Under the pieces are notes generated by a model. It made no database searches. It saw only the letters and a program-made list of their open reading frames with translations, and was not told the origin of the DNA. Shown one piece after another: positions 23,384-41,698 of a DNA stretch of 64,000 nucleotides (position 1 is the first letter of the stretch; every line of letters starts with the position of its first letter). The position numbers and the translations under genes are program-made. Source of the DNA: an uncultured virus (IMG/VR IMGVR_UViG_3300044733_004038) (Duplodnaviria; Heunggongvirae; Uroviricota; Caudoviricetes); IMG/VR virus record IMGVR_UViG_3300044733_004038, one strand, 5' to 3'.

Positions 23384-23612
23384 AAAAACTCCTTGGCAAC
23401 TGTTTAAAGAAAAAAATGGCGGAGTTACTCCACTAGATTTAATCAATCGAAACGCTCCCAGATCTAGCGAAGAGCTTGCAGCAGCACGATACACTACGTG
23501 TCAAGGCTGCGAGCGCTTTTTAAGCGTCACTAAGCAGTGTCTTGAGTGCGGTTGTTTTATGAATCTAAAAACACGACTACTAAACGCAAAGTGCCCGCTT
23601 GGCAAGTGGTGA
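23376..23612 (+). CDS. small Cys-rich protein
   Basis: RY.TC..C......QC.ECGC........CPLGKW. Confidence 0.7.
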   Translation: MSEKTPWQLFKEKNGGVTPLDLINRNAPRSSEELAAARYTTCQGCERFLSVTKQCLECGCFMNLKTRLLNAKCPLGKW

Positions 23613-23613
23613 T

Positions 23614-24969
23614 ATGCGAAATGGAAAAATTGAATTTGAGCTTCCAAATCCGCTAATCAGCGAACCTGTAGTAATTAAATCATTCTTCCCAGACGAAATG
23701 TTTTCTCGTGTTAAGAAAAGCGTAAACGACCTCAATCTCGGACCAGACGGCCCTAGCTACTACCATACGATGCTGGGACGATGGGAATCTCCAATCAGTT
23801 TTTCTAAGGACATTGAAGAATTTTCTTTGAAAAAAGCTAGAGAAGTATTCAATGATGACACCTTGCTTAAAGCGTATTTCTTTGTTGTCAGGTATCAGTC
23901 AATCAATGGCTGTATTCCGCACTTATGGGAGCACGTAGATCAAAATGGAACACAGACAACAGTTGATTTAACAATTGAAAATACCGCAAAGTGGAACCTA
24001 ATTGTAGAAGAAAAAGAATACGAGCAAAATGAAAATGAAGGAATAATCTTTGCAGGGCAGCAGCATACGCACGCGCGTCCTGCATATCCTTCTAGGCGCT
24101 CTGATGTGCACACTACTGTGGTGTTTATGCATTTTACTCGGCCTGATCATTGGATTCAAAAGAAAACTCGAGGAAATGACATAGGGCGGTATGGAAGTGA
24201 CGGCGACATTAGGTTTTTTAACAGAAACCGGTACATTCCAATGCCCGACGCACCGATCAATCAACCTGTCTGCTCGTGTCATGACTACTCTGGCGTTTTG
24301 TCACTTTACGACAAAATTCTTGGAGAGTACACAGACGACGAGCCAGAACTTGTTGACATGTCTGTTGAAGAAAAGACTGTGATTGCTCCAGGAATAGTGC
24401 AATACCAAATATCAAAACAGTCTGCTCAAACTCTTAAGGGTCTTGCGCAGAATTCGTGCTACAAGCTTTGGAAGCCTGCCCAGGTGCTTAGTGAGGAGCG
24501 AGATCCGACTGTTAACTACCAAGCTAGAACCTGCTACGTTAAGTTTATCAATAGTACCCAGCTGTCGTGTCATGTTCATGACCCAATACGTAGACTATAC
24601 GAAAGTCTTGAAGCTGGCATGGCTCCAATCATCAAAGACTTTAGAAAAATGTACAGCATACGAGAGCTGCAGTCGACAAACTGGCAGCTTACAAGATACG
24701 AGCGCGGTGGCTCTTTCCATAATCACGTTGATGACTGCTTAGAGTTTCCTAGAGTTGTCTCTGTCTCTGCTTTTCTAAATGACGGCTACACTGGTGGAGA
24801 TTTAGTGTTTACTCATAAAAACGTCAGGATTACTCGCGGCGCTGGCAAGATTGTCGTGTTTAGCTCGGGCTTTGAGAACATGCACTGTGTCGAGCCGGTA
24901 GCGAGCGGAATGCGATACGCCGCCGTAAAGTGGTACAACCACCTAGGCGGCACAAAAAACGGAACATAG
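23614..24969 (+). CDS. tandem two-domain 2OG-Fe(II) oxygenase (prolyl-4-hydroxylase-like)
   Basis: Two HxD...H sets: EHVD...HTHAR and NHVD...LNDGYTGG.L.F...HCVEPVASG.RY. Confidence 0.8.
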   Translation: MRNGKIEFELPNPLISEPVVIKSFFPDEMFSRVKKSVNDLNLGPDGPSYYHTMLGRWESPISFSKDIEEFSLKKAREVFNDDTLLKAYFFVVRYQSINGCIPHLWEHVDQNGTQTTVDLTIENTAKWNLIVEEKEYEQNENEGIIFAGQQHTHARPAYPSRRSDVHTTVVFMHFTRPDHWIQKKTRGNDIGRYGSDGDIRFFNRNRYIPMPDAPINQPVCSCHDYSGVLSLYDKILGEYTDDEPELVDMSVEEKTVIAPGIVQYQISKQSAQTLKGLAQNSCYKLWKPAQVLSEERDPTVNYQARTCYVKFINSTQLSCHVHDPIRRLYESLEAGMAPIIKDFRKMYSIRELQSTNWQLTRYERGGSFHNHVDDCLEFPRVVSVSAFLNDGYTGGDLVFTHKNVRITRGAGKIVVFSSGFENMHCVEPVASGMRYAAVKWYNHLGGTKNGT

Positions 24970-25592: not shown

Positions 25593-26603
25593 ATGTTTAT
25601 AGTGATTGAAGGCGCTGACGGCTCTGGTAAGTCGTCACTTATTGCTGAAATTAAGTCGCAGATTCAGGCAAGATTCCCTGAGAGAAGCGTCACGGAATTT
25701 CATAAAGGTAAGCCAGAAGAAGAGACGCTCCGTTGGGTGCTAAATGAATACGCGATTTCAATTGAAAAGCAAGACTGGACGTCCCGTCTTGCGATTGCAG
25801 ACCGATGGCACTGGGGAGAAGTTACCTACGCACCTATCAAGCGCCCTCATACGTGCAACGACTCGTACGGGCTTCTCGGTCGATCTGGTTGGCGCTGGGT
25901 AGAGCTATTTCTTATGTCACGTGGAGTTGCACAATTTTGGCTGTATCAGCCACTAGAAGTGCTAATTGAAAGAATCAATTCTCGCGGCGATGATTTTGTC
26001 AACACAGATGAGCTGGCACAAGTTCTTGAATACTATTCGTTTGGAGCTGGCGCTACCGCGCGCCTTGCTGGTAAAATTCAACCGCATCCATATAATTTTA
26101 ATGACGTAGGTGAGATTGCTACGGAGATAATCAACAAGGCTGAACGCATCGCTGAGGCTTCAGCAAAACTTGCTGAGTACCCGGAATATATAGGAGCTCC
26201 AAACCCTACTGCGCTTATAGTAGGTGATCAGCGCAACGTAACTTTAAAGTATGGAAATGAGACTATTCTTCCTTTTATGCCAGTGAACAGTAACTCTGGT
26301 GACTTTTTACTTAGTAGCATTCCGCATACAGTTTGGAAACAATACGGCATAGTAAACGCGAACGAGTTCTACGGCTCACGTCTGTTCAGTTTATGGGAAG
26401 CCTTAGGCCGCCCGAGAATAGTAGCTCTAGGGCGCATGGCAGAAAAAGGACTGCTGCTGTCTGGAATTGAATCCAGAAACATGACAGTCATGCCGCATCC
26501 GCAGTATGTCAAAAGATTTCATCACTACGACAAAAAAGCGTATGGCGCTGCTATAGCAGCAGCGGCTGAAGGGAGAGCAGAAGAGTCATGGACACTACGG
26601 TAA
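25593..26603 (+). CDS. dNMP (thymidylate-like) kinase fused to a uracil-DNA-glycosylase-like domain
   Basis: IVIEGADGSGKS, ADRWH, RGDD (kinase); YIG...ALIVGD..PF....SG.FL...IVALG...PHPQY (UDG fold). Confidence 0.75.
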   Translation: MFIVIEGADGSGKSSLIAEIKSQIQARFPERSVTEFHKGKPEEETLRWVLNEYAISIEKQDWTSRLAIADRWHWGEVTYAPIKRPHTCNDSYGLLGRSGWRWVELFLMSRGVAQFWLYQPLEVLIERINSRGDDFVNTDELAQVLEYYSFGAGATARLAGKIQPHPYNFNDVGEIATEIINKAERIAEASAKLAEYPEYIGAPNPTALIVGDQRNVTLKYGNETILPFMPVNSNSGDFLLSSIPHTVWKQYGIVNANEFYGSRLFSLWEALGRPRIVALGRMAEKGLLLSGIESRNMTVMPHPQYVKRFHHYDKKAYGAAIAAAAEGRAEESWTLR

Positions 26604-27451
26604 TTCGTGTTGAAGACGGAGTGAACGGCTACGTCGATCTTGTTAACTGGGTTCTTAAGTATGGCAAAGAAGTTGCTCCGCGCGGGCAGCAAACTAAAGA
26701 AATTGAAGATGCCACTGTCTTCATTGATAACGTCTATAATACTCTGCCTGTTGGCGTCAGCCGCGGCGCGGTGCCTGGCATTGGCGCAGTCGAAGCTTGT
26801 CAGCTAATTGCTGGCGTAAGCTATCCAAAGACAGTCATAGCCGTCGGTCCGCAGTTCAAAAATTTTGCAGAAGACAACGGACTGTTTCACGGCGCGTACG
26901 GTCTACGCACGCACACACAGTACGCTAAGGCGCTAGACAGACTTAAAAACGATCCTAGTACGCGGCAAGCAGTTGTAACTATCTGGGACCCAGAATTAGA
27001 CTTGCAATCAAACAAACGCGACTACCCTTGCACTATTCTTCATCAGTTTAGAATTCGCAATAACAGACTTAACATGAGCGTCTACATGAGATCCAATGAC
27101 GTCTGGCTTGGCGCTGCATATGACTTTTTTCAGTTTACTAGAGTACAAATCGCCATGGCGTCTATACTTGGAATTGAGCCAGGGACGTACGGACATCATG
27201 TCGGCTCGTTGCATTTGTACGAGCAGCACTACGAAGTAGCTGAAGATCTACATCATGTAGAGCGAAGCTCTATTGAATCGATACCGCCAATAACTGGGTC
27301 TTCATGGACGCAAGTAGAGGCAAAAGCCCGTCATGCGCTTGACGCGGTGTTTGATGAGTACATCCGTCAACGGCTAACTCCAGATCAAAAGTGGTACACT
27401 GACGCGATGATTTCGGCTATAGAGAAGAACTTCAAAAAGGAGAGCAAGTGA
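26588..27451 (+). CDS. thymidylate synthase homolog, dCMP-modifying (hydroxymethylase-like) type
   Basis: GAYG, RQAV, PCT, MRSNDVWLGAAYD, SLHLY; Asp at the ThyA Asn177-equivalent position. Confidence 0.8.
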   Translation: MDTTVIRVEDGVNGYVDLVNWVLKYGKEVAPRGQQTKEIEDATVFIDNVYNTLPVGVSRGAVPGIGAVEACQLIAGVSYPKTVIAVGPQFKNFAEDNGLFHGAYGLRTHTQYAKALDRLKNDPSTRQAVVTIWDPELDLQSNKRDYPCTILHQFRIRNNRLNMSVYMRSNDVWLGAAYDFFQFTRVQIAMASILGIEPGTYGHHVGSLHLYEQHYEVAEDLHHVERSSIESIPPITGSSWTQVEAKARHALDAVFDEYIRQRLTPDQKWYTDAMISAIEKNFKKESK

Positions 27452-27627
27452 AAGAAGACGACGACTATCCAAGCCCACTTAGAAGCGTTGCTGTACAGAT
27501 GCATGAAGTGTTTTCAGAGTTTAGACGTGCAGGATTCAGTCGCAAAGAGGCGTTAGAACTTGTTGCAAAAATACTGACCGGCACAGTTGGCTCTATAATC
27601 GAAGAAAACAACAAGGAAGAAGAGTAA
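27448..27627 (+). CDS. small hypothetical protein (59 aa, not in ORF track)
   Basis: GTGA overlap, AAGGAG RBS; MKEDDDYPSPLRSVAVQMHEVFSEFRRAGFSRKEALELV...; stop abuts the next ATG. Confidence 0.7.
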   Translation: MKEDDDYPSPLRSVAVQMHEVFSEFRRAGFSRKEALELVAKILTGTVGSIIEENNKEEE

Positions 27628-28110
27628 ATGACGCTTAAAAGGTTGTCTTGGGACGATACATGGTTGTCCGTCGCTGACATCGTGTCTGCGCGATCTCGAT
27701 GCACGCGGGCGCAGATGGGCGCAGTGATCGTTTCTCATGATCAACACATTGTTGCCACTGGGTACAATGGACCAGCCGCTAGTTGGCCAGAGTCAGGCGA
27801 CTGCATCAACTGGTGCGATCGCGCTAAAGGTTTAAGCCCACTTGACAACTTATATGATGCTTGCCCTGCTGTTCACGCAGAGGCAAACGCGCTTCTGTAC
27901 GTTGATAGATCACGAAGCGAGAATGGAACTATCTACATAACAAGTGTGCCGTGCATGCAGTGCGCTAAGCTTATTTCAAACTCAGGAATACGCAGAGTAG
28001 TGTCTAGACTGCGCAAGGCTGACATGCATCGTAGACCATATGATGTCGTCGCGTTTATGGAAAAGTGCAGTTTAGTTGTCACGCTAGTCAAGGATAAAGA
28101 TGTCGACTGA
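27628..28110 (+). CDS. dCMP deaminase
   Basis: RSRC, TGYNG, HAEANA, PCMQC. Confidence 0.9.
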   Translation: MTLKRLSWDDTWLSVADIVSARSRCTRAQMGAVIVSHDQHIVATGYNGPAASWPESGDCINWCDRAKGLSPLDNLYDACPAVHAEANALLYVDRSRSENGTIYITSVPCMQCAKLISNSGIRRVVSRLRKADMHRRPYDVVAFMEKCSLVVTLVKDKDVD

Positions 28111-29923
28111 TAATCTTGCAAACGTGCAGCTTCATTTGGTTGATAGCTCACAAAAGGCAAGTGATTTCATACACTGGCTTAGCCAGCGTCGCCCATACGA
28201 CGCGCTGTCTGTAGACACAGAAACTGGCGAACTGCCTGGCAATCCTAGAGAGCACGCGTTCTCGCCATGGCATGGTCGACTGCGCTTAGTGCAGGTTGGT
28301 GATGGAGAACAAGGTTGGTCAATTCCATGGGGAGAATGGGCAGGTGTTTTCTATGAAGCAATGGATAAATTTGACGGACCGCTGATCTGTCACAACATTG
28401 CGTTTGAAGCTCGTTGGTTTGATGTTCAATCGCGTTGGAAGATGCCGTGGCACCGCGCACACGACACGATGATTATGGCGCACATCATCGATCCACTAGG
28501 CTCAGGAGCGCTTAAACGACTTGCAGCTTTGCACGTCGATGGCCGCGCTGTAACTCTACAAAACACACTTGATGAAGAACTTGCTAAGAACGGCTGGACT
28601 TGGGGAACAGTTCCAGTAGACTTCAAACCTTACTGGTCGTACGGCGCGCTAGACTGCGTGCTAACTACACGGCTGTGGGAAATGTTCTATAAGCAGTGTG
28701 GTCCAGATGGGCCGTACCACAAGCCTTATGAACTTGAAATGCAGACTCGTCGCATCGTCACTCGTATGGAGCTGAATGGCGCACGAGTAGATCTTGAGTA
28801 CTCAAAAAAGAAATACGAAGAACTTACGACGTACACCGAGTCAGTAAAAACCTGGGCCAAGCAGACGTACGGTGGCGCGTCAATCACTAGCAATCAACAA
28901 CTAGTTCGCTTGTTCGAGAGTATCGGAGCAGAGATCACAGAGTTTACGCCAACAGGGCAGAAATCGTGCACTAAAGACCAATTGAAGATTCTTAAAATCA
29001 ACGGCAACGATGAAGTCAAGCAACTTGCTGACATAGTTCTAAAACAGCGCAAGGCCGACAAACTTGCCAATACCTATTTTTCTAACTTTTTAAGCGAAAA
29101 TGTCAATGGGTTTGTTCACCCGTCTGTGAAGACTCTAGGTGCTAGAACTTCACGCATGTCAATACAAAACCCGGCGCTGCAGACACTGCCAAAAGGCGAC
29201 GATGTAGTGCGCAGGGCGTTTCTTCCAAAAGATGAAAATCACGTAATTGTTACATCAGACTTAGACCAAGTCGAATTTAGAATGTTCGCAAGTCTTTCAA
29301 ATGACAACAATTTGATTGATCTGTTTAACCGCGCTGACTCAATCGGGTCTGACCCCTTTACTGAGATTGGTCGTGAAATATATGCAGACCCGACAATGGA
29401 ACGCTCAGACAAGCGTCGTGGACTGATAAAAGGCACGGTCTACGGAAGACTCTATGGCGCTGGAGTTGCAAAACAGGCGATTACAGCAGGCGTTGCAGAA
29501 CCGCAAATGCGCGCTGTATCTGACGCTTTTGACCTGCGTTTTCCTGGAATGTCGTACTTTCAAAAGCAAGTTGAAGACGCCGGAATGCGTCGGCTCCGCG
29601 ACGAAGGTCAAGGTTATGTCTACACATGGACAGGCCGTCGACTGCCGTGCGACGAAGATCGTGTATACACTCTTGTCAATTACCTTATTCAAGGTGGAGC
29701 TGCTGAAGTGTTCAAATCAAATCTTGTGAAACTCGACCAAGCAGACTTGACAGAACTGTTGATCGTTCCAGTGCACGACGAAATCGTGCTAAACGCGCCG
29801 CGAAAAGACGCTGAAGAAATAAAAAGAATTGTAAAGCAGTGCATGACAACTTCAGACGGCTGGGCAGTTCCGCTAACTGCAGGTATTGATGGTCCACTTG
29901 AAACATGGGGAGAAAAGTACTAA
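28100..29923 (+). CDS. polA: family A DNA polymerase with 3'-5' exonuclease
   Basis: DTET, HN..F, YGALD (exonuclease); DLDQVEFR, KGTVYGRLYG, VHDE (polymerase motifs A/B/C). Confidence 0.95.
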   Translation: MSTDNLANVQLHLVDSSQKASDFIHWLSQRRPYDALSVDTETGELPGNPREHAFSPWHGRLRLVQVGDGEQGWSIPWGEWAGVFYEAMDKFDGPLICHNIAFEARWFDVQSRWKMPWHRAHDTMIMAHIIDPLGSGALKRLAALHVDGRAVTLQNTLDEELAKNGWTWGTVPVDFKPYWSYGALDCVLTTRLWEMFYKQCGPDGPYHKPYELEMQTRRIVTRMELNGARVDLEYSKKKYEELTTYTESVKTWAKQTYGGASITSNQQLVRLFESIGAEITEFTPTGQKSCTKDQLKILKINGNDEVKQLADIVLKQRKADKLANTYFSNFLSENVNGFVHPSVKTLGARTSRMSIQNPALQTLPKGDDVVRRAFLPKDENHVIVTSDLDQVEFRMFASLSNDNNLIDLFNRADSIGSDPFTEIGREIYADPTMERSDKRRGLIKGTVYGRLYGAGVAKQAITAGVAEPQMRAVSDAFDLRFPGMSYFQKQVEDAGMRRLRDEGQGYVYTWTGRRLPCDEDRVYTLVNYLIQGGAAEVFKSNLVKLDQADLTELLIVPVHDEIVLNAPRKDAEEIKRIVKQCMTTSDGWAVPLTAGIDGPLETWGEKY

Positions 29924-30393
29924 TGGGCGACAGAATTATTCTTTCAGTAGATCCGGGTAAAGCAAGCGGTATCTGCACTTTCTCAATTACGCCAGGCGGA
30001 GAGCCTGTGCTTGAGAAGTCTGGTGAGTACCAAATGAAAGAGTACCACTTGCCTATCTACGAAACGCTTAAATATGCTAAAGCAACAGACTCTAAAGTAG
30101 AGATCGTATGCGAGAGGTTTATTATAAATGCGCAGACAGTAAGGAACTCGCAAGCTCCGTATAGTTTGGAGCAGATTGGTATTTTGAAGTACATTATGCT
30201 TGACAACGGAATTGACCCTGATGAATTGATTTTTCAATCTCCATCAGACGCGAAGAAGATGTTCTCTAACGACGCTCTTAAAAAGCTAGAGTACTGGCAT
30301 AGAGGTGGAGAAGGTCACGCTCTTGACGCAATAAGACACGGGCTTCTTCGCTTAGTAAAGACTGGTTGGAAACCAATGAAATTGCTTAGATAG
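29923..30393 (+). CDS. RuvC-like Holliday junction resolvase
   Basis: ILSVDPG..SG, IVCERF, HALDAIRH. Confidence 0.7.
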   Translation: MGDRIILSVDPGKASGICTFSITPGGEPVLEKSGEYQMKEYHLPIYETLKYAKATDSKVEIVCERFIINAQTVRNSQAPYSLEQIGILKYIMLDNGIDPDELIFQSPSDAKKMFSNDALKKLEYWHRGGEGHALDAIRHGLLRLVKTGWKPMKLLR

Positions 30394-30446
30394 CCATATA
30401 CTAAGAAAATATCTGCAAACTTGCAGTAAAGTGTCTTAGTATATGG
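30394..30446. promoter_or_regulatory. nested inverted repeat upstream of helicase
   Basis: CCATATACTAAGA...TCTTAGTATATGG (13-bp perfect arms) enclosing CTGCAA-AC-TTGCAG. Confidence 0.6.
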
Positions 30447-30483
30447 TAATATAGACATACGAAATGACGGAAGGATTGTGTAG

Positions 30484-32274
30484 GTGACAGTACAAGCAGA
30501 ACTCGATAGCACGGGTAGATACATAATTATTAACGCTGAATGGCGTTACAAAGAGCTGTGCAAGAGTATCCCAGGCGCTACGTGGTCGTCTAGCGAGCAA
30601 ACGTGGAAAACACCTGTCGGCTGGGCAACGTGTCTAGCGTTGCGATCAACTTTTAAGTCAGAACTTGTCATTGGCCAGCGGTTAACTGACTGGGCGACAA
30701 ATGAGCTATTGACACGCGTTGCGCCTGCTAACGCTCTTCGTTCTGTTGAAGCAATTGACGGTGAAGACACGCTGTTTCCTCACCAACGCGCTGGTGTTCA
30801 GTTTCTTGCTACGGCACACAGGGCACTTCTTGCTGATGAGCCTGGTCTTGGGAAAACAGCACAAGCAATAACGGCGCTTAAAGAACTTCGCAGCCGCGGT
30901 GAAAAAGTGTTCCCCGCGCTTGTTGTTTGCCCAAACACGCTTAAAAAGAACTGGGAAAGAGAATTCGCCAGATGGTGGCCAGATGTAAAAGTGCAGGTAG
31001 TCAAAGGTTCAGCAATGCAACGACGGAAACAGTTTGAGGAAGATGTTGACGTATTTGTCATTAACTGGGAATCTCTTCGAGGTCACTCACGGCTGGCTTC
31101 TTATGGCTCGGTATCGTTAGCACGCTGCCGTGACTGCGGCGGCCATGATGAAAAGGTCACAGAAAACCGCTGTGAAGTTCATATTCGTGAACTTAATAAA
31201 ATTGACTTTAACTCAGTCATTGCCGACGAAATTCACCGCTCCAAAGAGCCTAAATCAAAACAGACGCGTGCACTTTGGGCGGCAACAGGCAGCGCAAAAT
31301 TTAGATTTGCTCTTACAGGTACACCTATCGCCAATAACGTTTTAGATCTTTGGCCGATTCTTCATTGGCTATCGCCTGAAGAATGGCCAAGCAAGACTCG
31401 CTGGGTTGATCGCATGATTAACACCATGTTGAATGCGTTTGGCGGAATGATGGTTCTTGGCGTAAAACCTCATATGGAAGAAGAATTTTACGCGGCGATA
31501 AATCCAAGAATGCGTCGAATGCTCAAAGCTAAGGTGTTGCAGTGGCTTCCGCCAGTAGTCACAGAGCGTCGTGATGTTGAGATGTCTACTAAGCAAAAGA
31601 AAGCGTATCAGCAAATGCGTGATCTTATGATTGCTGAACTTGAAGGTGGAGACGCTCTTACAGCGCCAAGTCCGCTAACTCAGACTATACGTCTTCTGCA
31701 GTTTGCCAGCTCGTACGCGCAGTTAGATATTGACGAAGACACTGGTGAAATAAAAGCGCTTCTTGCAGAGCCATCGTGCAAGGTAGACGCGCTTATGGAC
31801 GACATATCAAATGGAGACTTTGGTGATGATTCTGTCGCTGTATGCGCAGTATCTCGCCAACTTATTGAACTACTAAGTGCTCAGATGACTGCTAAAAAGA
31901 TACCTCACGGGTTAATTACAGGCGCGCAAAATGAGGACGAACGCCAGCAAGCCGTTGATGACTTCCAGTCTGGAAAAATTAAATGGATATTGTTCACTGC
32001 TCAGGCTGGAGGCGTTGGCATCACTCTTACCGCGGCTAGACGACTTGTCATGCTTCAACGTCCATGGTCACTTATTGATCATAAACAAGCAATGGACAGA
32101 GTACACCGCATTGGTAGTGAAATTCATGACAGCATCGTCATTATGGACTACGTAACAGAGGACACCATTGAAGAGCGTGTAATTCAAGTGCTAGATACAA
32201 AAGCAGACAACTTCGAACAAATCGTTCGAGATAAGGCGCAACTTCTAGATATGTTGCGATCGGAGAAAGCGTAA
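30484..32274 (+). CDS. SNF2-family helicase
   Basis: LADEPGLGKT, DEIH, LTGTP, GVGITL, QAMDRVHRIG. Confidence 0.92.
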   Translation: MTVQAELDSTGRYIIINAEWRYKELCKSIPGATWSSSEQTWKTPVGWATCLALRSTFKSELVIGQRLTDWATNELLTRVAPANALRSVEAIDGEDTLFPHQRAGVQFLATAHRALLADEPGLGKTAQAITALKELRSRGEKVFPALVVCPNTLKKNWEREFARWWPDVKVQVVKGSAMQRRKQFEEDVDVFVINWESLRGHSRLASYGSVSLARCRDCGGHDEKVTENRCEVHIRELNKIDFNSVIADEIHRSKEPKSKQTRALWAATGSAKFRFALTGTPIANNVLDLWPILHWLSPEEWPSKTRWVDRMINTMLNAFGGMMVLGVKPHMEEEFYAAINPRMRRMLKAKVLQWLPPVVTERRDVEMSTKQKKAYQQMRDLMIAELEGGDALTAPSPLTQTIRLLQFASSYAQLDIDEDTGEIKALLAEPSCKVDALMDDISNGDFGDDSVAVCAVSRQLIELLSAQMTAKKIPHGLITGAQNEDERQQAVDDFQSGKIKWILFTAQAGGVGITLTAARRLVMLQRPWSLIDHKQAMDRVHRIGSEIHDSIVIMDYVTEDTIEERVIQVLDTKADNFEQIVRDKAQLLDMLRSEKA

Positions 32275-33224
32275 TGACAGATACAGTCACACAAGTAAAC
32301 ATGCCGTACAAGCTCTCTAACAGCGAGCTGCAGACATACAAAGACTGCAGACGCAAGTGGTGGTTGGCGTATTACCGACGTCTTCAACCAAAGACTCAAA
32401 ACATGACCGGCGCGCTGGCGCTTGGTTCTAGAATTCACAACGCGCTTGACGCGTACTACGGCCAAGGTATTCCGCTGCTTGAGGCGCACTCGATGTTCGT
32501 AGACCGTGACAAGCAGGCTCTTATCGACAGTTACCGTGACACTGTAGACCTTGACAGTGAAGCCGAACTTGGGCGCATCATGCTTGAAGGATATCTTCAA
32601 TGGGTAGAAGAGAACGGTATTGATGCCGAGCTTGAAATGATCTCAACTGAAGAAATAATCAGCATGCCTTTGTTTGACGGTGCAGTCGAACTTCAAGGTA
32701 AACTTGACATGCGTGTTCGTCGTCGCGGTGACGGTGTGCGTATGTTCCGTGACTTTAAGACAGTCGGCGGATCATTCACAGACTTCACCTCAATGGCTCA
32801 CATGAATGAGCAGATCCTTACTTATATGATGCTGGAGACAGCGCAAAATAAGGAAGGAGAACGAAGTGAAGGTGGCATCTTTACAATGCTAAAAAAGGTC
32901 AAGCGTTCAGCAAACGCAAGGCCACCGTTCTACGAACAAATGGAAGTTCGCCATAATGTGTTCGCATTGCGATCATTTTGGGCAAGAATTCATGGAACAA
33001 TCAAAGACTTGATGGAGACAAAAAAGTCGCTTGATGAAGGCCACGATCATCACTTCGTTGCATACCCACGGCCTAGTCGTGACTGCAAATGGAAGTGTCA
33101 GTTCTTTAGTGTTTGTCCGCTTATCGACGACGGAAGCGCCGCCGAGAACGCAATCACTGAGATGTACGAGGTCGCCGACCCGTATGAATACTACAAATCA
33201 AGAGACATAAAAGGAAGTGAGTGA
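32274..33224 (+). CDS. PD-(D/E)XK (RecB/Cas4-like) exonuclease
   Basis: S.SEL..Y..C.R.W, G..IH, GKLD, DFKT, C.WKCQF..VC. Confidence 0.85.
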   Translation: MTDTVTQVNMPYKLSNSELQTYKDCRRKWWLAYYRRLQPKTQNMTGALALGSRIHNALDAYYGQGIPLLEAHSMFVDRDKQALIDSYRDTVDLDSEAELGRIMLEGYLQWVEENGIDAELEMISTEEIISMPLFDGAVELQGKLDMRVRRRGDGVRMFRDFKTVGGSFTDFTSMAHMNEQILTYMMLETAQNKEGERSEGGIFTMLKKVKRSANARPPFYEQMEVRHNVFALRSFWARIHGTIKDLMETKKSLDEGHDHHFVAYPRPSRDCKWKCQFFSVCPLIDDGSAAENAITEMYEVADPYEYYKSRDIKGSE

Positions 33225-33979
33225 CAATGGGTGAAGTACAACGCTCCTTGACCATGATGGTCTATGGAGAGTCTAAGGTAGGTAAATCAACATTTGCGGT
33301 GACAGCACCGTATCCTCGTCTCATGCTTGACGTTGAAGGCGGACATAGATTCTTGCCAATCAATGTTAAGTACTGGGATCCGCTACGGGAAGAACCACCA
33401 GTAGCAGACGGAACTTGGGATACATGCGTTGTAAACGTGACAGAGTATGACACAGTGCTTAAGGCGTATCAGTGGCTGCAGCTGGGTAAGCACCAGTTTA
33501 AGTCACTGATTATTGACTCCGTGTCTGAACTACAAGTTAAGTGCATGGATAACATTGCCGGTACAAATCAAATGCAGATGCAGCAATGGGGCGAACTTCT
33601 TCGTCACATGGGAGCGCTATTGCGTGACCTTCGTGACTTGACGATGCACCCGACTGCTCCGCTCGAGGCTGTAGTCCTCACCGCAATGGCACGTCAAAGC
33701 CAGGACGGTCGTTATCGTCCGTACTTGCAAGGTCAACTTGCAATTCAGGCGCCGTATTTCTACGACATCTTAGGAGCGATTACTGTTGAAGAATTCTCAA
33801 CAGGCGACCCTACGCAGCCTCCATACAAGGCGCGTCGTATGTACGTTGAGCGAACTAACCAGTTTGAAGCTGGAGAACGCGTTCAAGGTAGACTCGGCAA
33901 AATTGTCGAGCAGGAAAACCTCGGTATTGAGCGAATGCTTGATATTGTGTTTGGTGAAAAACCAAAAGCAAAAAAATAA
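33221..33979 (+). CDS. AAA ATPase (Sak4-like recombination protein)
   Basis: YGESKVGKST, LDVEGG, IIDSVSELQ; between the exonuclease and SSB genes. Confidence 0.8.
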   Translation: MTMGEVQRSLTMMVYGESKVGKSTFAVTAPYPRLMLDVEGGHRFLPINVKYWDPLREEPPVADGTWDTCVVNVTEYDTVLKAYQWLQLGKHQFKSLIIDSVSELQVKCMDNIAGTNQMQMQQWGELLRHMGALLRDLRDLTMHPTAPLEAVVLTAMARQSQDGRYRPYLQGQLAIQAPYFYDILGAITVEEFSTGDPTQPPYKARRMYVERTNQFEAGERVQGRLGKIVEQENLGIERMLDIVFGEKPKAKK

Positions 33980-34009
33980 ACCACGAGACAGAAAGATAGG
34001 TAACAGACA

Positions 34010-34555
34010 ATGAATACCCTAAACTGGGGAGACCTCGTCAAAGAGGCAGCAGACACCGGAAATTACGACCCGCTTCCGGACGGTGACTACGATCTTCAGA
34101 TCGTGGAAGCTGTAGCAAAAGTAACACAAACAGGAAAGACGATGTTCGCCGTAAAGGCGCAAGTCCAGACTGGAGCGCACGCAAAGCGCCTTGTTTGGGA
34201 CAACCTCGTTGTTTCAACCGATAACCCGACAGCACTTGGAATCTTCTTTCGCAAGATGAATTCTCTTGGTCTTAACCGGGAGTACTTTGCTCAGAGTCCT
34301 ACAAACGCTCAGATTGAACAGATCCTCAAAGGTCGATCGTTCCGCGCGCAGATTGGATCACGAACATGGCAAGGTCAGAAAAAGAACGAAATTAAGGCGT
34401 ACTACGCTGTTCAGGCTGCTGCAACCGCAGCAGCTGCTGCACCAGCACCAGCGCCTGCTCCAGCACCAGCACCAGCACCAGCTCCGGCGCCAGCCGCAGC
34501 GCCTGCTGCTGCGGCCGCAGCTGCTCCGGCGCCAGCGCCAACCGCACCGTTCTAA
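34010..34555 (+). CDS. single-stranded DNA-binding protein (DUF669-like) with (AP)n tail
   Basis: DPLPDGDY, GKTMF, KNEIK motifs; Ala/Pro tail ending in PF. Confidence 0.75.
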   Translation: MNTLNWGDLVKEAADTGNYDPLPDGDYDLQIVEAVAKVTQTGKTMFAVKAQVQTGAHAKRLVWDNLVVSTDNPTALGIFFRKMNSLGLNREYFAQSPTNAQIEQILKGRSFRAQIGSRTWQGQKKNEIKAYYAVQAAATAAAAAPAPAPAPAPAPAPAPAPAAAPAAAAAAAPAPAPTAPF

Positions 34556-34572
34556 GTTTACTTGGAACGCCC

Positions 34573-34610
34573 GTAAGACGTCGCTCTGCTTCGGTGGAGC
34601 GGCGTCTTAC
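34573..34610 (+). terminator. long hairpin with cUUCGg tetraloop
   Basis: GTAAGACGTCGCTCTGC-TTCG-GTGGAGCGGCGTCTTAC after the SSB gene; no U tract. Confidence 0.7.
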
Positions 34611-34631
34611 ACTAATCTACTTAAGGAACTT

Positions 34632-34730
34632 ATGACAATTATTGGAAAACGCAACAATCCGTGTGCTTGTAAGTCACCAGCTCCTGTCGACCCGTTCTGC
34701 GGTGACAGAGGCGTAGAAGACGACGACTAG
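34632..34730 (+). CDS. 32-aa Cys-containing micropeptide
   Basis: AAGGA RBS; MTIIGKRNNPCACKSPAPVDPFCGDRGVEDDD; fills the intergenic gap. Confidence 0.45.
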   Translation: MTIIGKRNNPCACKSPAPVDPFCGDRGVEDDD

Positions 34731-34747
34731 AAGAAAAGGAATCACAT

Positions 34748-35953
34748 ATGAAAATCCTAATGTCAGGTTTTACCGCGCTACAGATCAACACAGAACGACG
34801 AACAATTCAAAAAATTGACGTCCCTGGCTCAATAGTTAAAGCACTACGAGAATCTGGCCACGAAGTTGACTGGCGTAAAATTACACCAGGAGAAGATCTT
34901 TCTATTTATGACGTCGTGTGGGTCAATCTTGCTCCTTTAAACTCGTTAAATGGCCGTCAAGGCGCTATGGGCTCGTTGTACGCGCTTGGTTCTGGTCGCC
35001 CATGCGTTGGATTTTTTGATGACTGGCAGTTCAGCGCGGTGTTTAACGGTGCCAGAGCTTTGGGTCGTCACCCAGAAATGATTTACAAATATCTTCTTAC
35101 TGGAGAACGCGGTGATGAAAGCGCAACCTATTTCAGCAGAGCTGACGCTGAAGCCGCATATGCACGCGCAATTGCTCTTAATCCAAACGCAGTAGGCAAG
35201 ATCTACATCGACAGGTACTACTCGCTTGACACTGATGATGCTGTAAAACCTTATGAAAATATGATCGTCGAGTCTGCAAAAAACTTCTTAGAAAAGCGAT
35301 GGGCAGCAGGCATGGTGCCAGCGTGCCCAATGTATGGATTTGGAAACAGAACGTTAGTTCGTAAGCGCATGCCTAGCGTTATGGGACCAATCGAGGCCCT
35401 TGATCCGAGCTCAACGATATATGACACCCTTGAAGCAGTCACACCTGCTGACGCGGCTACAAAAAAGCGTTCGTGGGTTCTTGGCGCGTTGATGCCTCAC
35501 GACACATGGTTGGAAAGAAAGAGCCCTGCGTGGCCAGTTGAAATCGTAGGCAGTAGAAAACTTATTCGCAAATACGGCGGTCAGCGCTTTCAGACTGAAG
35601 CTGATGTTCTCGGCTTCTACAATGATCACTGGGGAATCTTGTCGCCGCCATACCCGCACGCTGGGTCAGGCTGGTGGCGTAGCCGATTCATGTACGCCGC
35701 TCGCGTCGGTTCAATTCTTGTGACTGATAAAGGAGAAGGCGACCCACTTGGCGCTCCATATAAACTAACTATCCGCCAGGTTGAGGCTATGAACGACGCC
35801 GAACTCAAAGAAGCAGCCGACGCACAGTCGGCGGCGCTTCGTCCGCACATGCCAACGTACCAATCGTTCGTCGAGCACTGCAACAGAATTGTTACACGAG
35901 CAGCTACTGAAGATAGAGGACTTAAACTCAACCCAGACGGCACAGTCGCATGA
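34748..35953 (+). CDS. GT-B glycosyltransferase, T4 beta-glucosyltransferase-like (1)
   Basis: MKIL...L...GHEVD...YDVVWVN..LNSLNG...VGFFDD parallels the T4 BGT N-domain as recalled; C-terminal WWRSRF..A. Confidence 0.6.
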   Translation: MKILMSGFTALQINTERRTIQKIDVPGSIVKALRESGHEVDWRKITPGEDLSIYDVVWVNLAPLNSLNGRQGAMGSLYALGSGRPCVGFFDDWQFSAVFNGARALGRHPEMIYKYLLTGERGDESATYFSRADAEAAYARAIALNPNAVGKIYIDRYYSLDTDDAVKPYENMIVESAKNFLEKRWAAGMVPACPMYGFGNRTLVRKRMPSVMGPIEALDPSSTIYDTLEAVTPADAATKKRSWVLGALMPHDTWLERKSPAWPVEIVGSRKLIRKYGGQRFQTEADVLGFYNDHWGILSPPYPHAGSGWWRSRFMYAARVGSILVTDKGEGDPLGAPYKLTIRQVEAMNDAELKEAADAQSAALRPHMPTYQSFVEHCNRIVTRAATEDRGLKLNPDGTVA

Positions 35954-36975
35954 AAAAAGTACTAGTTACGGGAATGACGTCATCGCAGTCGTCTATTCGC
36001 GCTAATCTTAGAACCCTGCAGTTTTCAGGAGTTCTTGTCGATATCCTTGAGAAAGCAGGCTACGACGTCACCCATGAACCGCCTTCTGTTGAATGGGACG
36101 CTGCGTTTTTAGACGAGTATGACGCTGTAGTTGCTGGTGTATCTCCAATCACAAGCGTGTCAGCTAACTACGCGTATGGCGGCCTCAGCGTAATAGACGC
36201 GCTTAAAGACAGTGATAAGTTGATTATGTTCATCGACGCTCCGGCTCCGCATCAGATTTTTTCTAGTCTGCGCGCAATTAGCACAGCTCCAGAGAATATT
36301 GTCAAACAGTTCTACTCATCACGTAAAGAGTACTTCGAAGCAGCGCGTCCTGGAGTTAAAAATAAGCTTCTTTCAGCTGTTGACTATTTGTTGAACGACA
36401 ACTGGAAGACATGTTTGTACCCAGAGCTGCCGTGGAACAACCACTACAAAGTGTGTGCTCAAGTAGGAGATAACGCCGCAAAAGCGCTAAAGCCAGTCAA
36501 TGTTGATTCTTACCTTGTGTCTGACACACCATCAACCACGGCTGTAGAAAAAGCTATCGTAAAAAAGCACGTTTGGGTGGCAAGTGACGTAACTTCAAGT
36601 TGGACTAAACGAGTTGCAGCGACGTCAAAGTTTCCGTTTACCGCGGCGAAAGACGGATACAAATCAACCGACGCGTCACTTAAAACAAAACTTGAAGGTT
36701 CTTCTGGCGCCGCAATTTCTCCTCATGGGCGAGACGGGTCTTGGTGGAGTCCGATGTTTGCCTACGCAATGAACACGATTACTCCTGTTGTTACCGACTG
36801 GCGAGACAGTGGCGCCATCGGTGATGCATGGAATTATATTGCTTCAGCCGTTGAAGATCTTGATCCTTTTGATAGAATTGACCTGTCATTCAGCCAAAAA
36901 GAACAATATGCTGATAAAATTCCAGATAGATCTACAGTTTTACAAACGCTAGAAACACATTTACAACTACAGTAA
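35950..36975 (+). CDS. GT-B glycosyltransferase-like paralog (2)
   Basis: Colinear with the previous gene (KVLVTG, GYDV, YDAVV, MFID, GSWWS); ATGA overlap. Confidence 0.55.
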   Translation: MKKVLVTGMTSSQSSIRANLRTLQFSGVLVDILEKAGYDVTHEPPSVEWDAAFLDEYDAVVAGVSPITSVSANYAYGGLSVIDALKDSDKLIMFIDAPAPHQIFSSLRAISTAPENIVKQFYSSRKEYFEAARPGVKNKLLSAVDYLLNDNWKTCLYPELPWNNHYKVCAQVGDNAAKALKPVNVDSYLVSDTPSTTAVEKAIVKKHVWVASDVTSSWTKRVAATSKFPFTAAKDGYKSTDASLKTKLEGSSGAAISPHGRDGSWWSPMFAYAMNTITPVVTDWRDSGAIGDAWNYIASAVEDLDPFDRIDLSFSQKEQYADKIPDRSTVLQTLETHLQLQ

Positions 36976-36981
36976 GGACAT

Positions 36982-37449
36982 ATGGGACTATTATTCAACG
37001 ACTGGCTGGCAAAGACTAAGCAGCTACAGCAAGAGTCATATGGTGTGTCTTATGAGAAGTTTGAAGGCAGTCAGCCGCAGGAATTAAACAATATCATTGA
37101 GTACTTGCGCTGGAACATGCTCGCGATAGACGATGAGCTCGCCGAGGTGCGCAAAGAGATCTCGTGGAAGCCGTGGCAACACGATGATCCGTACGTTAAT
37201 CGCGAGGCAGTGATTAAAGAGTGTGTTGACATTTTGCATTTTGTTGCGAACATAATATGCGCAGTCGGTGGAACTGACCAGCAACTGGACTCGTACTACG
37301 TCAACAAGATGGAAGTCAACAGACAGCGTCAAATCAAAGGATACAAAGTCAAAAGTGACGGCGTCAAGTGTAGTAAATGCACTCGTGCTTTAGATGATTT
37401 TGACGTAAGCACGTGCCCTGAACAAGAATGTCCTGGAAAGGTTAAGTAA
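36982..37449 (+). CDS. all-alpha NTP pyrophosphatase (dimeric dUTPase/dCTPase, MazG-like) with C-terminal Cys cluster
   Basis: DELAE..E..WKPW...KECVDILHF. Confidence 0.85.
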   Translation: MGLLFNDWLAKTKQLQQESYGVSYEKFEGSQPQELNNIIEYLRWNMLAIDDELAEVRKEISWKPWQHDDPYVNREAVIKECVDILHFVANIICAVGGTDQQLDSYYVNKMEVNRQRQIKGYKVKSDGVKCSKCTRALDDFDVSTCPEQECPGKVK

Positions 37450-37868
37450 TGCCAAGCGTAGATTATCAATGGGTTCGTGAGCAACTACAGGCTCACAAGA
37501 TAAGGGTAGGAGTTGGCAACACAGTACTTGAGCTGCTTGCCGCTTGGGAAAAAGGCAAGCACAGTTCAAAGCAAAACCAAGAAGTTATTGAGCTGTTCAC
37601 TAAGTTTGCGCAAAACATTCCGCTTACAGAAGATGCGCCTGATGAAACCTGGGTGCCCGCGCAGCCTGGAAACATCGTAGTTGGTGATGTTATTCGTGTG
37701 AAGATAGACGCGTTTACAGATGAAACTGGTCGCATTCACAATGGACGCAGAGGGAAGGTAGTTGCAGTACGCTATGGAGACGTGATTTTTAAGTCTACAG
37801 ACGGTAAGACACCGCTTCTTGATGGAGTTCACTATTCTCCGTACGCGCTGGAAAAAAGGATCAAATAA
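37449..37868 (+). CDS. hypothetical protein (SH3/KOW-like C-terminus)
   Basis: VGDVIRV....NGRRGKVVAV; translationally coupled ORF. Confidence 0.7.
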   Translation: MPSVDYQWVREQLQAHKIRVGVGNTVLELLAAWEKGKHSSKQNQEVIELFTKFAQNIPLTEDAPDETWVPAQPGNIVVGDVIRVKIDAFTDETGRIHNGRRGKVVAVRYGDVIFKSTDGKTPLLDGVHYSPYALEKRIK

Positions 37869-38065
37869 TGCGCCAATTCATAGAGTACAAAGTCTACGGC
37901 AAAACAATTGCCGAAATTGCAGAAAACGCAGAGAAAGAATGGCGTGATCTTACAGATAATTCAACCGCGGTGCTTCCTCGCGACACTGAGATTCATATAG
38001 TGTCTCACAGCGCCGACGAGTACGTTGGTAACGTACAAATTAGAGCACGGACTGAAGACAAATGA
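37868..38065 (+). CDS. hypothetical protein
   Basis: TAATG and ATGA coupling on both sides. Confidence 0.7.
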   Translation: MRQFIEYKVYGKTIAEIAENAEKEWRDLTDNSTAVLPRDTEIHIVSHSADEYVGNVQIRARTEDK

Positions 38066-38355
38066 AAAAGAACAGCACCGCAAGAGAAAGAATGCTTGCT
38101 GAAGCCTGTGACATTATCTCTGGAGCAAGAGCTAAACAGTACGGAGGACCAGAAGACAACTTTGAACGAATTGCAAAGCTGTGGTCAGTGATTTTTGGAA
38201 TTGAAGTGACAAAAGAAGATGTCGCAATGGCTATGGTAGCTGTAAAGGTTGCTCGCTACGCTTCTAAGTCTGGATTTCAGCCAGACACATGGGTAGATAT
38301 AGCTGGGTACGCCGCGTGTGGTTATGAAGTCGGCGAAATCGACGCTAGTTTGTAG
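38062..38355 (+). CDS. DUF6378-like phage protein
   Basis: R..QYG.PEDNF.RIA.LW...VA..M..VK.AR...D.WVDIAGYA. Confidence 0.8.
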   Translation: MKKNSTARERMLAEACDIISGARAKQYGGPEDNFERIAKLWSVIFGIEVTKEDVAMAMVAVKVARYASKSGFQPDTWVDIAGYAACGYEVGEIDASL

Positions 38356-38412
38356 TAAGTTTCTGCGTCGAGCAGTATAAGATTAAACAACTGATTGGAT
38401 AACGGACAAACT

Positions 38413-39660
38413 ATGGAAAAACCAACATTTATTGACTGCAACGGTCTTGCTGGGTTCATGAGCTACGGCTTTACTCAGGCTGGAATGGAAATGACGTTGC
38501 GCACTGGAACTTTAGACTTTGGCAACAAAGTCGCAGAGGTAAACCGCAAGTTTCTTGGTGACAAGTGGGATTCTTTCTTCTCAAGTAAAGAAGACGAATG
38601 GCCAGTAAAAGATGCAGATGTTGTCATGGGTTGTCCGCCGTGCTCTGGTTGGTCTGTATGGTCGGGTCCTGCAAACCGTGGTCCAGACTCAGCAGCGCAC
38701 GAGCATACACGCGCGTTTATGCGCTACGCGGCAAAAGTTGCTCCTGAAATAATTGTATTTGAGTGCGTGCAACAAGCTTTCACTCAAGGGCGAGACGTCA
38801 TGGTTCAATACAGAGACATGGTCGAACAACTAAGCGGTAAACGCTACGACCTCTATCACGTTAAGCACAACAACTTGCACGTAGGCGGATTCTCGTACCG
38901 GCCGCGATACTTTTGGGTTGCAACACGAGGTGGAATGCCTTTTAGTGTTGAAGAGCCGATTGTAGGACGTCTACCACGGCTTATGGAAGTTATTGGAGAT
39001 CTCGCAAAGATGCCTCTGCAGTGGGAAGCACAGAAGTACACTGCGCCAGCTTCACCAATTATTGCGCATCTTAGATCTGAGACTGGCATGGTAAACGGGC
39101 ACATTGGCAAGACAAATATTCATGCTCAGCGAGTTAAAGATGTGTTTGACATCGTAGGCAACGATGGTTGGAAAAACAGTGAAGATCTTGGAACAAATCT
39201 TAAAAAAGCTTATGAAGCAAATGGCAATAAGTTTCCAAAGACTTGGGAAAATCTTGGTGCAAATATTCTTGCTAACGACTTTAACTTAGGATTTTCTCAA
39301 CCGTATCGTTGGAGAAAAGATCTTTGGGCGAACGTGCTAACTGGCTCAGCACTAGATCATGTTGTTCACCCTACAGAGCCTCGTCTAATTACTCATCGAG
39401 AAGCAGCGCGTATTCAAGGCCTGCCTGACGACTGGGAGTTTGAGTCAGTGAAAGACTACAGCTACTTGCAATCAACGTGGGGTAAGGCAGTCGCAGCTCA
39501 AGCAGCAAACTGGGTAGGTAAAGGAGTTGTCGCCTCTCTTGGCGGACAGTCTTTGACAAGAAGCGGAACTCTAATTGGAGACCGCGAGTATTTTGTAGAC
39601 ACAGACAAAGGATTTTCTCGTCAAAAAGTCAAGAAACAATGGTACCCAGAAGCTGGATAA
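38413..39660 (+). CDS. C5-cytosine DNA methyltransferase-fold protein with atypical motifs
   Basis: Motif IV GCPPCSG, VI FECV, VIII RPR, IX RLITHREAARIQG.PD, X GKAV; motif I reads DCNGLAG. Confidence 0.8.
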   Translation: MEKPTFIDCNGLAGFMSYGFTQAGMEMTLRTGTLDFGNKVAEVNRKFLGDKWDSFFSSKEDEWPVKDADVVMGCPPCSGWSVWSGPANRGPDSAAHEHTRAFMRYAAKVAPEIIVFECVQQAFTQGRDVMVQYRDMVEQLSGKRYDLYHVKHNNLHVGGFSYRPRYFWVATRGGMPFSVEEPIVGRLPRLMEVIGDLAKMPLQWEAQKYTAPASPIIAHLRSETGMVNGHIGKTNIHAQRVKDVFDIVGNDGWKNSEDLGTNLKKAYEANGNKFPKTWENLGANILANDFNLGFSQPYRWRKDLWANVLTGSALDHVVHPTEPRLITHREAARIQGLPDDWEFESVKDYSYLQSTWGKAVAAQAANWVGKGVVASLGGQSLTRSGTLIGDREYFVDTDKGFSRQKVKKQWYPEAG

Positions 39661-39727: not shown

Positions 39728-40237
39728 ATGCAATCATTTCTTACTATTCCAGATTCATTTACAGCAACTGCTGCAACACTTGACAATAAGCGTCTGCACA
39801 AACAGACGCTTGAGGCATGGCAGTGTTTATTGACAAACACTAAACTAGACCCTGAAGGCAATCATCGTGACCCCAAAGGCTGGTACAACCACCCTGTCGC
39901 TCGCATGTGGCGTGGGTACGAAACGTTGCTTGTTTCTTACATTTCTGCAACGTACTTTGAATGGCGTAGTCGTGGCTTCAAGTCTACGCTGCTTGACAAG
40001 ACTTACCGCACGTACGATCGCGCAGTAGAACTTAATCGAGTGTCTACAGATCTACTTGTGCCTACTTGGATGACAGACCGCGAGTACTACGAGCGTCTAT
40101 GCTCCACGCATAGAACTGCGCTGCTGTGCAAGAACTACGATTGGTATAATCAATTTAATTGGGATGAAGATTCTGGCGCTAAACCGCAAACATACGTTTA
40201 CCTATGGCCGCATCAAGATGGTTTTGTAGCTGCCTAA
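39728..40237 (+). CDS. pyrimidine-dimer DNA glycosylase / MSMEG_6728-like protein
   Basis: MQ.FL...LD.KRL.KQ..EA.Q...HP..RMW.GYE...HR..L..K. Confidence 0.8.
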   Translation: MQSFLTIPDSFTATAATLDNKRLHKQTLEAWQCLLTNTKLDPEGNHRDPKGWYNHPVARMWRGYETLLVSYISATYFEWRSRGFKSTLLDKTYRTYDRAVELNRVSTDLLVPTWMTDREYYERLCSTHRTALLCKNYDWYNQFNWDEDSGAKPQTYVYLWPHQDGFVAA

Positions 40238-41697: not shown

Positions 41698-41698
41698 G

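Follow-up and report, generated by a model that had tools for sequence, protein, structure and literature searches.

Predicted synthesis of sugar-modified 5-hydroxymethylcytosine, with an unusual methyltransferase-fold partner, in a putative actinobacterial siphovirus

Does the gene cassette at positions 25,593 to 39,660 of an uncultured tailed phage (IMG/VR record IMGVR_UViG_3300044733_004038; the whole 64,000-nucleotide stretch analysed is termed the window) direct the replacement of cytosine, and if so by which base? The cassette combines a thymidylate synthase (ThyA) homolog with a deoxynucleoside monophosphate (dNMP) kinase, a dCMP deaminase, an all-alpha dNTP pyrophosphatase (dNTPase), two putative glycosyltransferases (GT1 and GT2), a DUF6378 protein and a C5-cytosine-methyltransferase-fold enzyme (the MTase). 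An earlier note had named these genes, all of which were located on the + strand by open reading frame (ORF) listing and family scans, and had proposed that the phage makes a C5-modified, glycosylated cytosine. Phage T4 makes glucosyl-5-hydroxymethylcytosine (glucosyl-hmC) with gp42, the gp1 kinase, the gp56 dCTPase and glucosyltransferases. The proposal is supported, and the base sharpened to 5-hydroxymethylcytosine (hmC), by the synthase residues, the complement of thymidylate and folate genes, the gp56 homology, the GT-B fold and sugar enzymes in the corresponding slot of relatives. The phage probably replaces cytosine by sugar-modified hmC through a T4-like route with added features, the chemistry being predicted.

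For assignment of the synthase product, residues at ThyA positions 143, 169 and 177 were compared across sequence records. In the available text of PMC13326640, Asp177 is linked to dCMP as substrate, an acidic residue 143 to a non-methyl product and Asn169 to 5-hydroxylation. Alignment with the T4, RB69, Xp12 and SPO1 enzymes confirmed the Asp that had been noted earlier at the ThyA Asn177 position and gave D/D/D for the window synthase, the same as T4 gp42, with N/D/D for Xp12 and E/N/D for RB69 gp48; SPO1 gp29 lacks Asp at 177, having Ala at the ungapped position and Asn next. The window enzyme thus has the ThyA fold, Cys146, Asp177, an acidic residue 143 and a retained Asp169, as gp42/MilA-type enzymes do, and its best PDB match was CMP 5-hydroxymethylase (5jnh/5b6d, E 6e-19). 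Because all three residues are those of T4 gp42, unlike those of RB69, Xp12 and SPO1, hydroxymethyl-dCMP is the likely product. Three other assignments fit poorly: an RB69 gp48-type 5-hydroxy-dCMP synthase, as D169N is missing (Asp169 here and in 30/30 relatives); an Xp12-type dCMP methylase, known from the single reference enzyme of Xp12, as residue 143 is not Asn and the phage has no dihydrofolate reductase (DHFR); and an SPO1 gp29-type dUMP hydroxymethylase, as Asp177 is present. The complete genome holds exactly one ThyA-family gene, and a search of it for ThyX, DHFR or a second ThyA found none; controls for the ThyA-family, ThyX and DHFR searches were positive in 10, 5 and 10 of 14 genomes.

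By homology (29% over 108 aa; pairwise E 2e-7, profile E 5.5e-12) the dNTPase belongs with T4 gp56, and a dCTPase role is predicted. The deaminase is an ordinary dCMP deaminase by family scan; in Gordonia phage Forza the corresponding ORF is unannotated and was recovered by BLAST. For the kinase, PHROG 761 (thymidylate kinase) was matched at E 9e-17. The ten best family-bearing ESM Atlas matches to its C-terminal domain (26151-26603) were all PF03167 uracil-DNA glycosylase (UDG) or its clan (best 0.91), and PF03167 was carried by 18-36% of the members of the top three matching clusters; that the domain is UDG-superfamily-like is a lead only. The kinase of phage DSL-LC01 aligns at 52% over 322 aa with the UDG-like domain present, whereas those of the Gordonia phages and of Micrococcus phage Kurnik are shorter and align over the N-terminal domain only.

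GT1 was modelled with a GT-B fold, and its top Foldseek match was T4 beta-glucosyltransferase (BGT) at 10-11% structural identity. In the ESM Atlas GT1 scored 0.96 to a cluster with 40% PF09198. The strand-Asp and C-terminal WW motifs of GT1 recur in GT2. Two genes of the GT1/GT2 family were present in 45 of the 46 near loci that reach the single-stranded DNA-binding protein (SSB) gene; the sole exception has an APH kinase, a HAD phosphatase and an NTP transferase in this sugar slot. These three enzyme types are among those listed for arabinose supply in RB69 and DLP3 (PMC13326640, available text). A UDP-galactopyranose mutase gene adjoins GT1 in DSL-LC01 and in an Aeromonas T4-like phage. In Aeromonas phage 60AhydR15PP (L008:8897-11077), a GT1 homolog and the mutase lie next to motA; T4-like Aeromonas phages with this pair are without the odd MTase, and some Aeromonas T4-like phages may contain an unknown base, according to the part of PMC8056088 available. 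The window cassette itself has no sugar-nucleotide gene. Elsewhere in the genome (L001: 6690-7322, 8068-8406, 10907-11704, 11960-14008 and 14069-15929), genes are listed for an NTP-transferase, a mannose-6-phosphate-isomerase-like cupin, an Fpg/Nei glycosylase, a class II ribonucleotide reductase, a radical SAM/SPASM protein and a GT61 protein; the NTP-transferase and the cupin could feed sugar-nucleotide supply.

The least ordinary part of the cassette is the rebuilt cofactor pocket of the MTase, which the earlier note had missed, although it was right about the fold (model pLDDT 88.8; DNMT1/HaeIII-type Foldseek matches). With the motif register set by alignment to M.HaeIII, the window enzyme has N10 and L12 (motif I), G32 (motif II), PPC77, E117, R163/R165 and K358 (motif X). 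The fold and motifs IV (PC), VI (Glu) and VIII (RxR) of canonical C5-MTases are present, whereas the S-adenosylmethionine (SAM)-binding FxGxG of motif I and the motif X Asn are absent from this enzyme, which scores 35.9 bits against TIGR00675, below the cut-off of 100.65. A profile search (E up to 1e-30) returned at least 172 family clusters at 50% identity, and residues were counted in the 123 representatives of at least 360 aa among the 150 matches listed. The catalytic Cys is kept in 119/123, the motif VI Glu in 122/123 (as E-S-V, not ENV) and the two motif VIII Arg residues in 121/123 and 123/123. The motif I Phe position holds Gln (62), His (16) or Asn (9), the next motif I Gly is replaced by Phe or Leu, and the motif X residue (HhaI Asn304 position) is Lys in 118/123; all 120 close homologs among the matches listed have both PPC and the motif X Lys.

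Association of the MTase with the synthase was examined in 38 records behind MTase loci, picked by length (31 distant, 7 near). A ThyA-fold gene was present in 32, one in each, and the six without are 21-64% complete; among records at least 90% complete, 16/16 have exactly one. All 30 synthases returned as loci from MTase-bearing genomes are D/D/D, as are 11/11 inside distant MTase loci (four of these near-identical). Of 55 distant MTase loci, 50 hold the dNTPase gene, and in 40 it lies within 700 bp of the MTase gene. The constancy of the MTase while decoration genes vary ties it, by gene content, to the putative hmC core rather than to one particular sugar. In the distant carriers L124, L135, L142, L147, L126, L115, L127 and L131, amino-acid:DNA-transferase and 5-hmdU-kinase-like genes accompany the odd MTase, and some add inositol-1-phosphate synthase and a HAD phosphatase; the synthases of L124 and L135 (L190, L191) are D/D/D, a hint that hmC, and not hmU (5-hydroxymethyluracil), is the base that is phosphorylated and receives the transferred group.

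A possible trace in the genome itself was found in its dinucleotides, of which CC/GG is the most depleted genome-wide (0.73). At synonymous boxes GCC is used at 12%, ACC at 12%, CCC at 2% and TCC at 4%, versus 24% for GTC, 34% for GGC and 32% for CGC. A codon-shuffle test of C|C and G|G codon junctions in orthologous replication genes gave 0.62 (z -6.1) and 0.59 (z -8.4) of expected for the window, and 0.56/0.56 across 43 ORFs of replication and structural genes. Avoidance at synonymous sites was seen in 6/6 cassette phages (C|C 0.42-0.74, G|G 0.59-0.79) and was weaker in the three relatives that have this replication operon but no cassette (C|C 0.85-0.93, G|G 0.98-1.00); the family A DNA polymerase (PolA) of two of these, Microbacterium phages Pumpernickel and Zooman, is nearer the window's than Gordonia PolA is, yet their avoidance is weak. 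Other sets gave, for C|C and G|G, 0.92/0.97 (Samisti12), 0.87/0.92 (Sycamore), 0.87/0.76 (T4, a small sample of 595 codons), 0.69/0.76 (Aeromonas) and 0.52/0.58 (the Manatee Spring phage, which has a D/D/D synthase, GT1 and a distant MTase homolog). The signal was stronger with GT-slot genes (median 0.73 versus 0.84). It is symmetric between the strands, as would be expected if neighbouring modified cytosines carry a cost at the DNA level, and we take it as a possible footprint of such a cost, not as proof. Avoidance might also stem from UV damage at CC steps; a pyrimidine-dimer-glycosylase-family gene lies next to the MTase.

From the observed gene content, residues, GT1 and MTase folds, co-occurrence and CC/GG avoidance, we infer each chemical step, a sugar, full or partial replacement and a role against restriction or CRISPR. 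In the proposed route, the ThyA-fold enzyme would convert dCMP to 5-hydroxymethyl-dCMP, which the phage kinase would phosphorylate, a host kinase carrying out the last step. The gp56-like dNTPase would destroy dCTP, PolA would incorporate hmC into new DNA, and the deaminase would turn surplus dCMP into dUMP from which the host makes dTMP. Once the DNA is replicated, GT1 would move a sugar from an NDP-sugar onto the hydroxymethyl group, with GT2 adding a second sugar or serving another sequence context; as the cassette has no sugar-making gene, a host NDP-hexose is the most likely donor. The MTase would attack C6 of a flipped cytosine ring as any C5-MTase does, probably without SAM.

Several points weigh against this route. 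Overall, the synthase is nearer SPO1 gp29 (30.5%, 117 bits) than T4 gp42 (27.6%, 56 bits), and the residue rules for its product rest on few characterized enzymes. The BGT-like character that the earlier note gave to the glycosyltransferases is supported for GT1 by its GT-B fold, but no significant sequence link to BGT was found: hhalign to BGT gave a probability of 4.7%, and a profile search of the PDB with GT1 gave no match. PimA and BGT also tie as structural matches. GT1 is for these reasons a candidate whose DNA acceptor we infer from context, and further glycosyltransferase genes of the phage are probably for protein glycosylation. CC/GG avoidance is neither unique nor universal (L5 0.85/0.81, Trina 0.78/0.93, RB69 1.04/0.60, Xp12 0.97/0.99), and some odd-MTase loci reach junction ratios of 0.90-0.97. 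The contrasts between cassette and cassette-free phages are few and not phylogenetically independent, with some overlap with L5, and other junctions are biased too (AT 0.70, AC 0.77, TT 0.77; AA 1.17). Four-base palindromes are still mildly under-represented (mean 0.905, GGCC 0.67); a phage fully immune to restriction would not be expected to show this. The motif II Glu, absent in the window clade, is kept in 81/123 distant MTase homologs, so an adenosine cofactor is still conceivable. The chemistry and enzymology of every family member are predictions.

Three rivals concern the base. The synthase could be a dCMP methylase of the Xp12 type, or make methyl-dCMP that the deaminase turns into dTMP, leaving 5-methylcytosine (5mC) or normal bases and glycosyltransferases that act elsewhere. 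The adjacency of kinase, synthase and deaminase, the lack of another thymidylate synthase in the genome searched and the dCMP deaminase beside the synthase of the 5mC phage Xp12 agree with such a scheme. A methylating enzyme needs DHFR to recycle folate, which the hydroxymethylase reaction does not oxidize; Xp12 has DHFR next to its synthase, whereas none was found in this phage genome. Asp143, as in gp42 and MilA, where Xp12 has Asn, and the glycosyltransferase pair and sugar enzymes that travel with the cassette likewise make a methylase very unlikely. Equally improbable is deamination of hm-dCMP to hm-dUMP, so that glycosylated hmU replaces part of T. The overall likeness to SPO1 gp29 would suit it, as would the 5-hmdU-kinase and amino-acid:DNA-transferase domains of some distant carriers, which are known from hmU systems; all synthases examined, however, have Asp177, the footprint at CC/GG (0.56) exceeds that at TT or AA, and the constant partner has a cytosine-specific MTase fold. 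The least probable base of all is a glycosylated 5-hydroxycytosine like that of RB69, DLP3 and RL38J1. Relatives do hold a UDP-galactopyranose mutase or kinase/HAD/NTP-transferase sets of those systems' types, but the D169N change is missing from the window synthase and its relatives, and nine of nine additional D169N enzymes tested made 5hodC (available text of PMC13326640).

The job of the MTase can be separated from the hmC-sugar route. Plain methylation would serve little purpose in a genome with most C5 positions already taken, and all 30 synthases read from MTase-bearing genomes are D/D/D; on these grounds there is an even chance that the enzyme performs SAM-independent chemistry on C or hmC. 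In vitro, C5-MTases can reportedly couple C with formaldehyde and hmC with thiols (PMC7176277, available text). Hydroxymethylation of leftover C in DNA, coupling of a nucleophile to hmC via an exocyclic methylene, and alkylation with carboxy-SAM or plain SAM are equal candidates, each on its own unlikely; some job outside this list is less likely again, and an attack on host C-DNA is the least likely. That the Lys-type family is a new class of DNA-modifying enzyme, using cysteine chemistry without SAM to make a base not yet described in a broad set of actinophages whose CC-poor genomes would reflect its cost, is a tentative idea, more doubtful than SAM independence itself. Alkylation would leave the hmC-sugar route right and make the MTase a CmoX-like carboxymethyltransferase or a plain SAM methylase of residual C, an unlikely though serious alternative. 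At the HhaI Asn304 site CmoX has Arg350 and the engineered M.MpeI N374K has Lys, both for carboxy-SAM (available text of PMC12783734), which the motif X Lys of this family mirrors, and the motif II Glu is widely kept outside the window clade. CmoX keeps the adenine-binding Phe, the Glu contacts and the SPPC motif (same text), whereas here the motif I Phe and Gly are replaced; by motif, the window enzyme falls outside CmoX, with CPPC and Lys and not SPPC and Arg. No CmoA was found when class I MTases adjacent to the odd MTase or fused to it were scanned (these are FkbM- or UbiG-like), or in Pfam scans of 136 ORFs, although no dedicated whole-genome search was made. The MTase might instead be a self/non-self weapon that, without SAM, deaminates or traps unmodified host C, the UDG-like domain aiding breakdown and hmC DNA being spared. 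Cofactor-free C5-MTases promote C-to-U change, and both the tight pairing of MTase and predicted dCTPase and the UDG-like domain of the kinase agree with this; with the shorter Gordonia and Kurnik kinases aligning to the N-terminal domain only, it is improbable. In T4, host C-DNA breakdown is the role of DenA/DenB. The same 136 ORFs gave no Pfam match to a TET/JBP-type dioxygenase, as the C5-MTase, TET and glycosyltransferase route (Burke/Pyle) would have. A two-domain 2OG-Fe(II) oxygenase (PF13640) lies just upstream of the cassette at 23599-24969, with no TET/JBP match; no such neighbour of the MTase was seen in relatives. Fusions or insertions in the MTase family (P0245, P0211, P0148, P0169, P0170 and P0269) comprise a 5-hmdU-kinase helical domain, a LAGLIDADG-bearing intein or FkbM methyltransferases.

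The predicted hmC route resembles the T4 system in its D143/D169/D177, gp56 homolog, dCMP deaminase, dNMP kinase and a GT-B enzyme closest by Foldseek to BGT. It differs in belonging to a siphovirus, putatively of Actinobacteria, with PolA; in a TMK-like kinase with a UDG-like domain; in two glycosyltransferase paralogs of low structural identity to BGT; in having no ThyA or DHFR of its own beside the synthase; in the constant MTase; and in a strong CC/GG avoidance not clearly seen in the small T4 sample. With the RB69, DLP3 and RL38J1 arabinosyl/galactosyl-5-hydroxycytosine systems it shares the logic of a synthase, a kinase, several GT-B enzymes and sugar-nucleotide genes, with the same enzyme types in the relatives' slot (PMC13326640, available text); Asp169 is kept here, however, the window cassette has no sugar-nucleotide gene, and BLAST links between locus L021 and the RB69 sugar genes are marginal (best E 0.002). 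The CmoX/CmoA/CmoY system of Synechococcus phage S-B43 (PMC12783734, available text) likewise has the C5-MTase fold and a basic residue replacing HhaI Asn304, but here this is Lys, SPPC and the adenine-stacking Phe are lost, a dCMP-type synthase is always present and the scans found no CmoA.

In DSL-LC01 ('Nanparkviridae'), the Gordonia phages Forza, Sixama, GodonK, Phendrix and GMA2 and Micrococcus phage Kurnik, the synthase signature, deaminase, MazG-like protein or dNTPase, glycosyltransferases and odd MTase occur in the same order, with a varying sugar slot and genes annotated as thymidylate synthase, methyltransferase or hypothetical. In the available text of the DSL-LC01 paper (PMC10611076), the mutase gene is assigned to the host wall and the MTase is read as a standard methylase. 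Metagenome mining has already yielded large numbers of contigs with ThyS plus GT-B (10.1101/2023.12.21.572611, available text). Literature searches found no publication on the DNA of these actinophages or on this MTase family. To our knowledge, most known cases of pre-replicative glycosyl-hmC are in T4-like myoviruses that infect Gram-negative bacteria. If the proposed route is correct, abundant freshwater actinophages and cultured ones would add both a further host phylum and another polymerase family, and the interchangeable genes of the sugar slot make new DNA glycans a prospect. The rebuilt methylase is a large uncharacterized enzyme family tied to the hmC pathway; perhaps it carries out in nature the side reactions that C5-MTases show in vitro (hydroxymethyl on C, nucleophile on hmC). 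CC/GG avoidance, if a true footprint, would be a sequence-only marker for such phages. Cultured carriers exist in Gordonia phages Forza, GodonK and GMA2 and Micrococcus phage Kurnik.

The virus record spans 131,575 bases with direct terminal repeats and a completeness rating of 100%; lake-water metagenomes contain the same DNA and may be its source. Family scans identified three WhiB genes and a Dit-like tail gene in the phage; among cultured or named phages, its nearest relatives are DSL-LC01, large Microbacterium phages and Gordonia phages (PolA identity 84%, 55-58% and 38-41%, respectively); together these point to a siphovirus with Actinobacteria as putative host. The cassette consists of two modules flanking a replication operon, the kinase, synthase and deaminase before PolA and the remainder after SSB. 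Pumpernickel, Zooman and Arthrobacter phage Racecar have the operon PolA-RuvC-helicase-exonuclease-Sak4-SSB, with ThyX nearby, without either module (on the evidence of the 8-10 kb surrounding PolA and of none being among the MTase and GT2 matches), which marks the modules, on gene content, as a discrete add-on. The order of two small hypothetical genes, for which family scans gave nothing above cut-off, is kept in most near loci; the DUF6378 gene directly upstream of the MTase is conserved in the near clade, and the pyrimidine-dimer-glycosylase-family gene is the conserved 3' neighbour of the MTase in most near loci.

Table 1. Positions of the cassette genes and their neighbours in the window
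Feature	Position	Strand	Basis
dNMP kinase, TMK-like P-loop domain (aa ~1-185) plus possibly UDG-superfamily-like C-terminal domain (aa 186-336)	25593..26603	+	PHROG 761, ESM Atlas
ThyA-fold dCMP hydroxymethylase candidate	26588..27451	+	PF00303 E 1e-23; Cys146, D143, D169, D177 (ThyA numbering)
dCMP deaminase	27628..28110	+	PF00383 E 1e-18, PHROG 174 E 5e-37
Family A DNA polymerase (PolA)	28100..29923	+	PF00476 E 7e-53
Replication/recombination genes: RuvC-like, SNF2 helicase, PD-(D/E)XK exonuclease, Sak4-like, SSB	29905..34555	+	Family scans
GT1, GT-B fold DNA glycosyltransferase candidate	34748..35953	+	
GT2, GT1 paralog, second glycosyltransferase candidate	35950..36975	+	20% to GT1, E 9e-6
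All-alpha dNTP pyrophosphatase, T4 gp56 (dCTPase/dUTPase) homolog	36982..37449	+	PF08761 E 2.5e-11
Two small conserved hypothetical genes (139 aa; about 65 aa at 37868-38065)	37449..38065	+	
DUF6378 protein	38062..38355	+	PF19905 E 8e-28
C5-cytosine-methyltransferase-fold enzyme, rebuilt cofactor pocket	38413..39660	+	PF00145 E 3e-19
Pyrimidine-dimer-glycosylase-family gene	39728..40237	+	PF03013 E 2e-11

Two further regions of the window were recorded. On the - strand at 41182-43438, before the tail-tip array, lie genes for a GT2-family glycosyltransferase with TPR repeats and a class I methyltransferase, a pair probably for virion-protein glycosylation. At 21114-22427 a tail-region protein has two PPVT repeat runs between Cys-rich segments.

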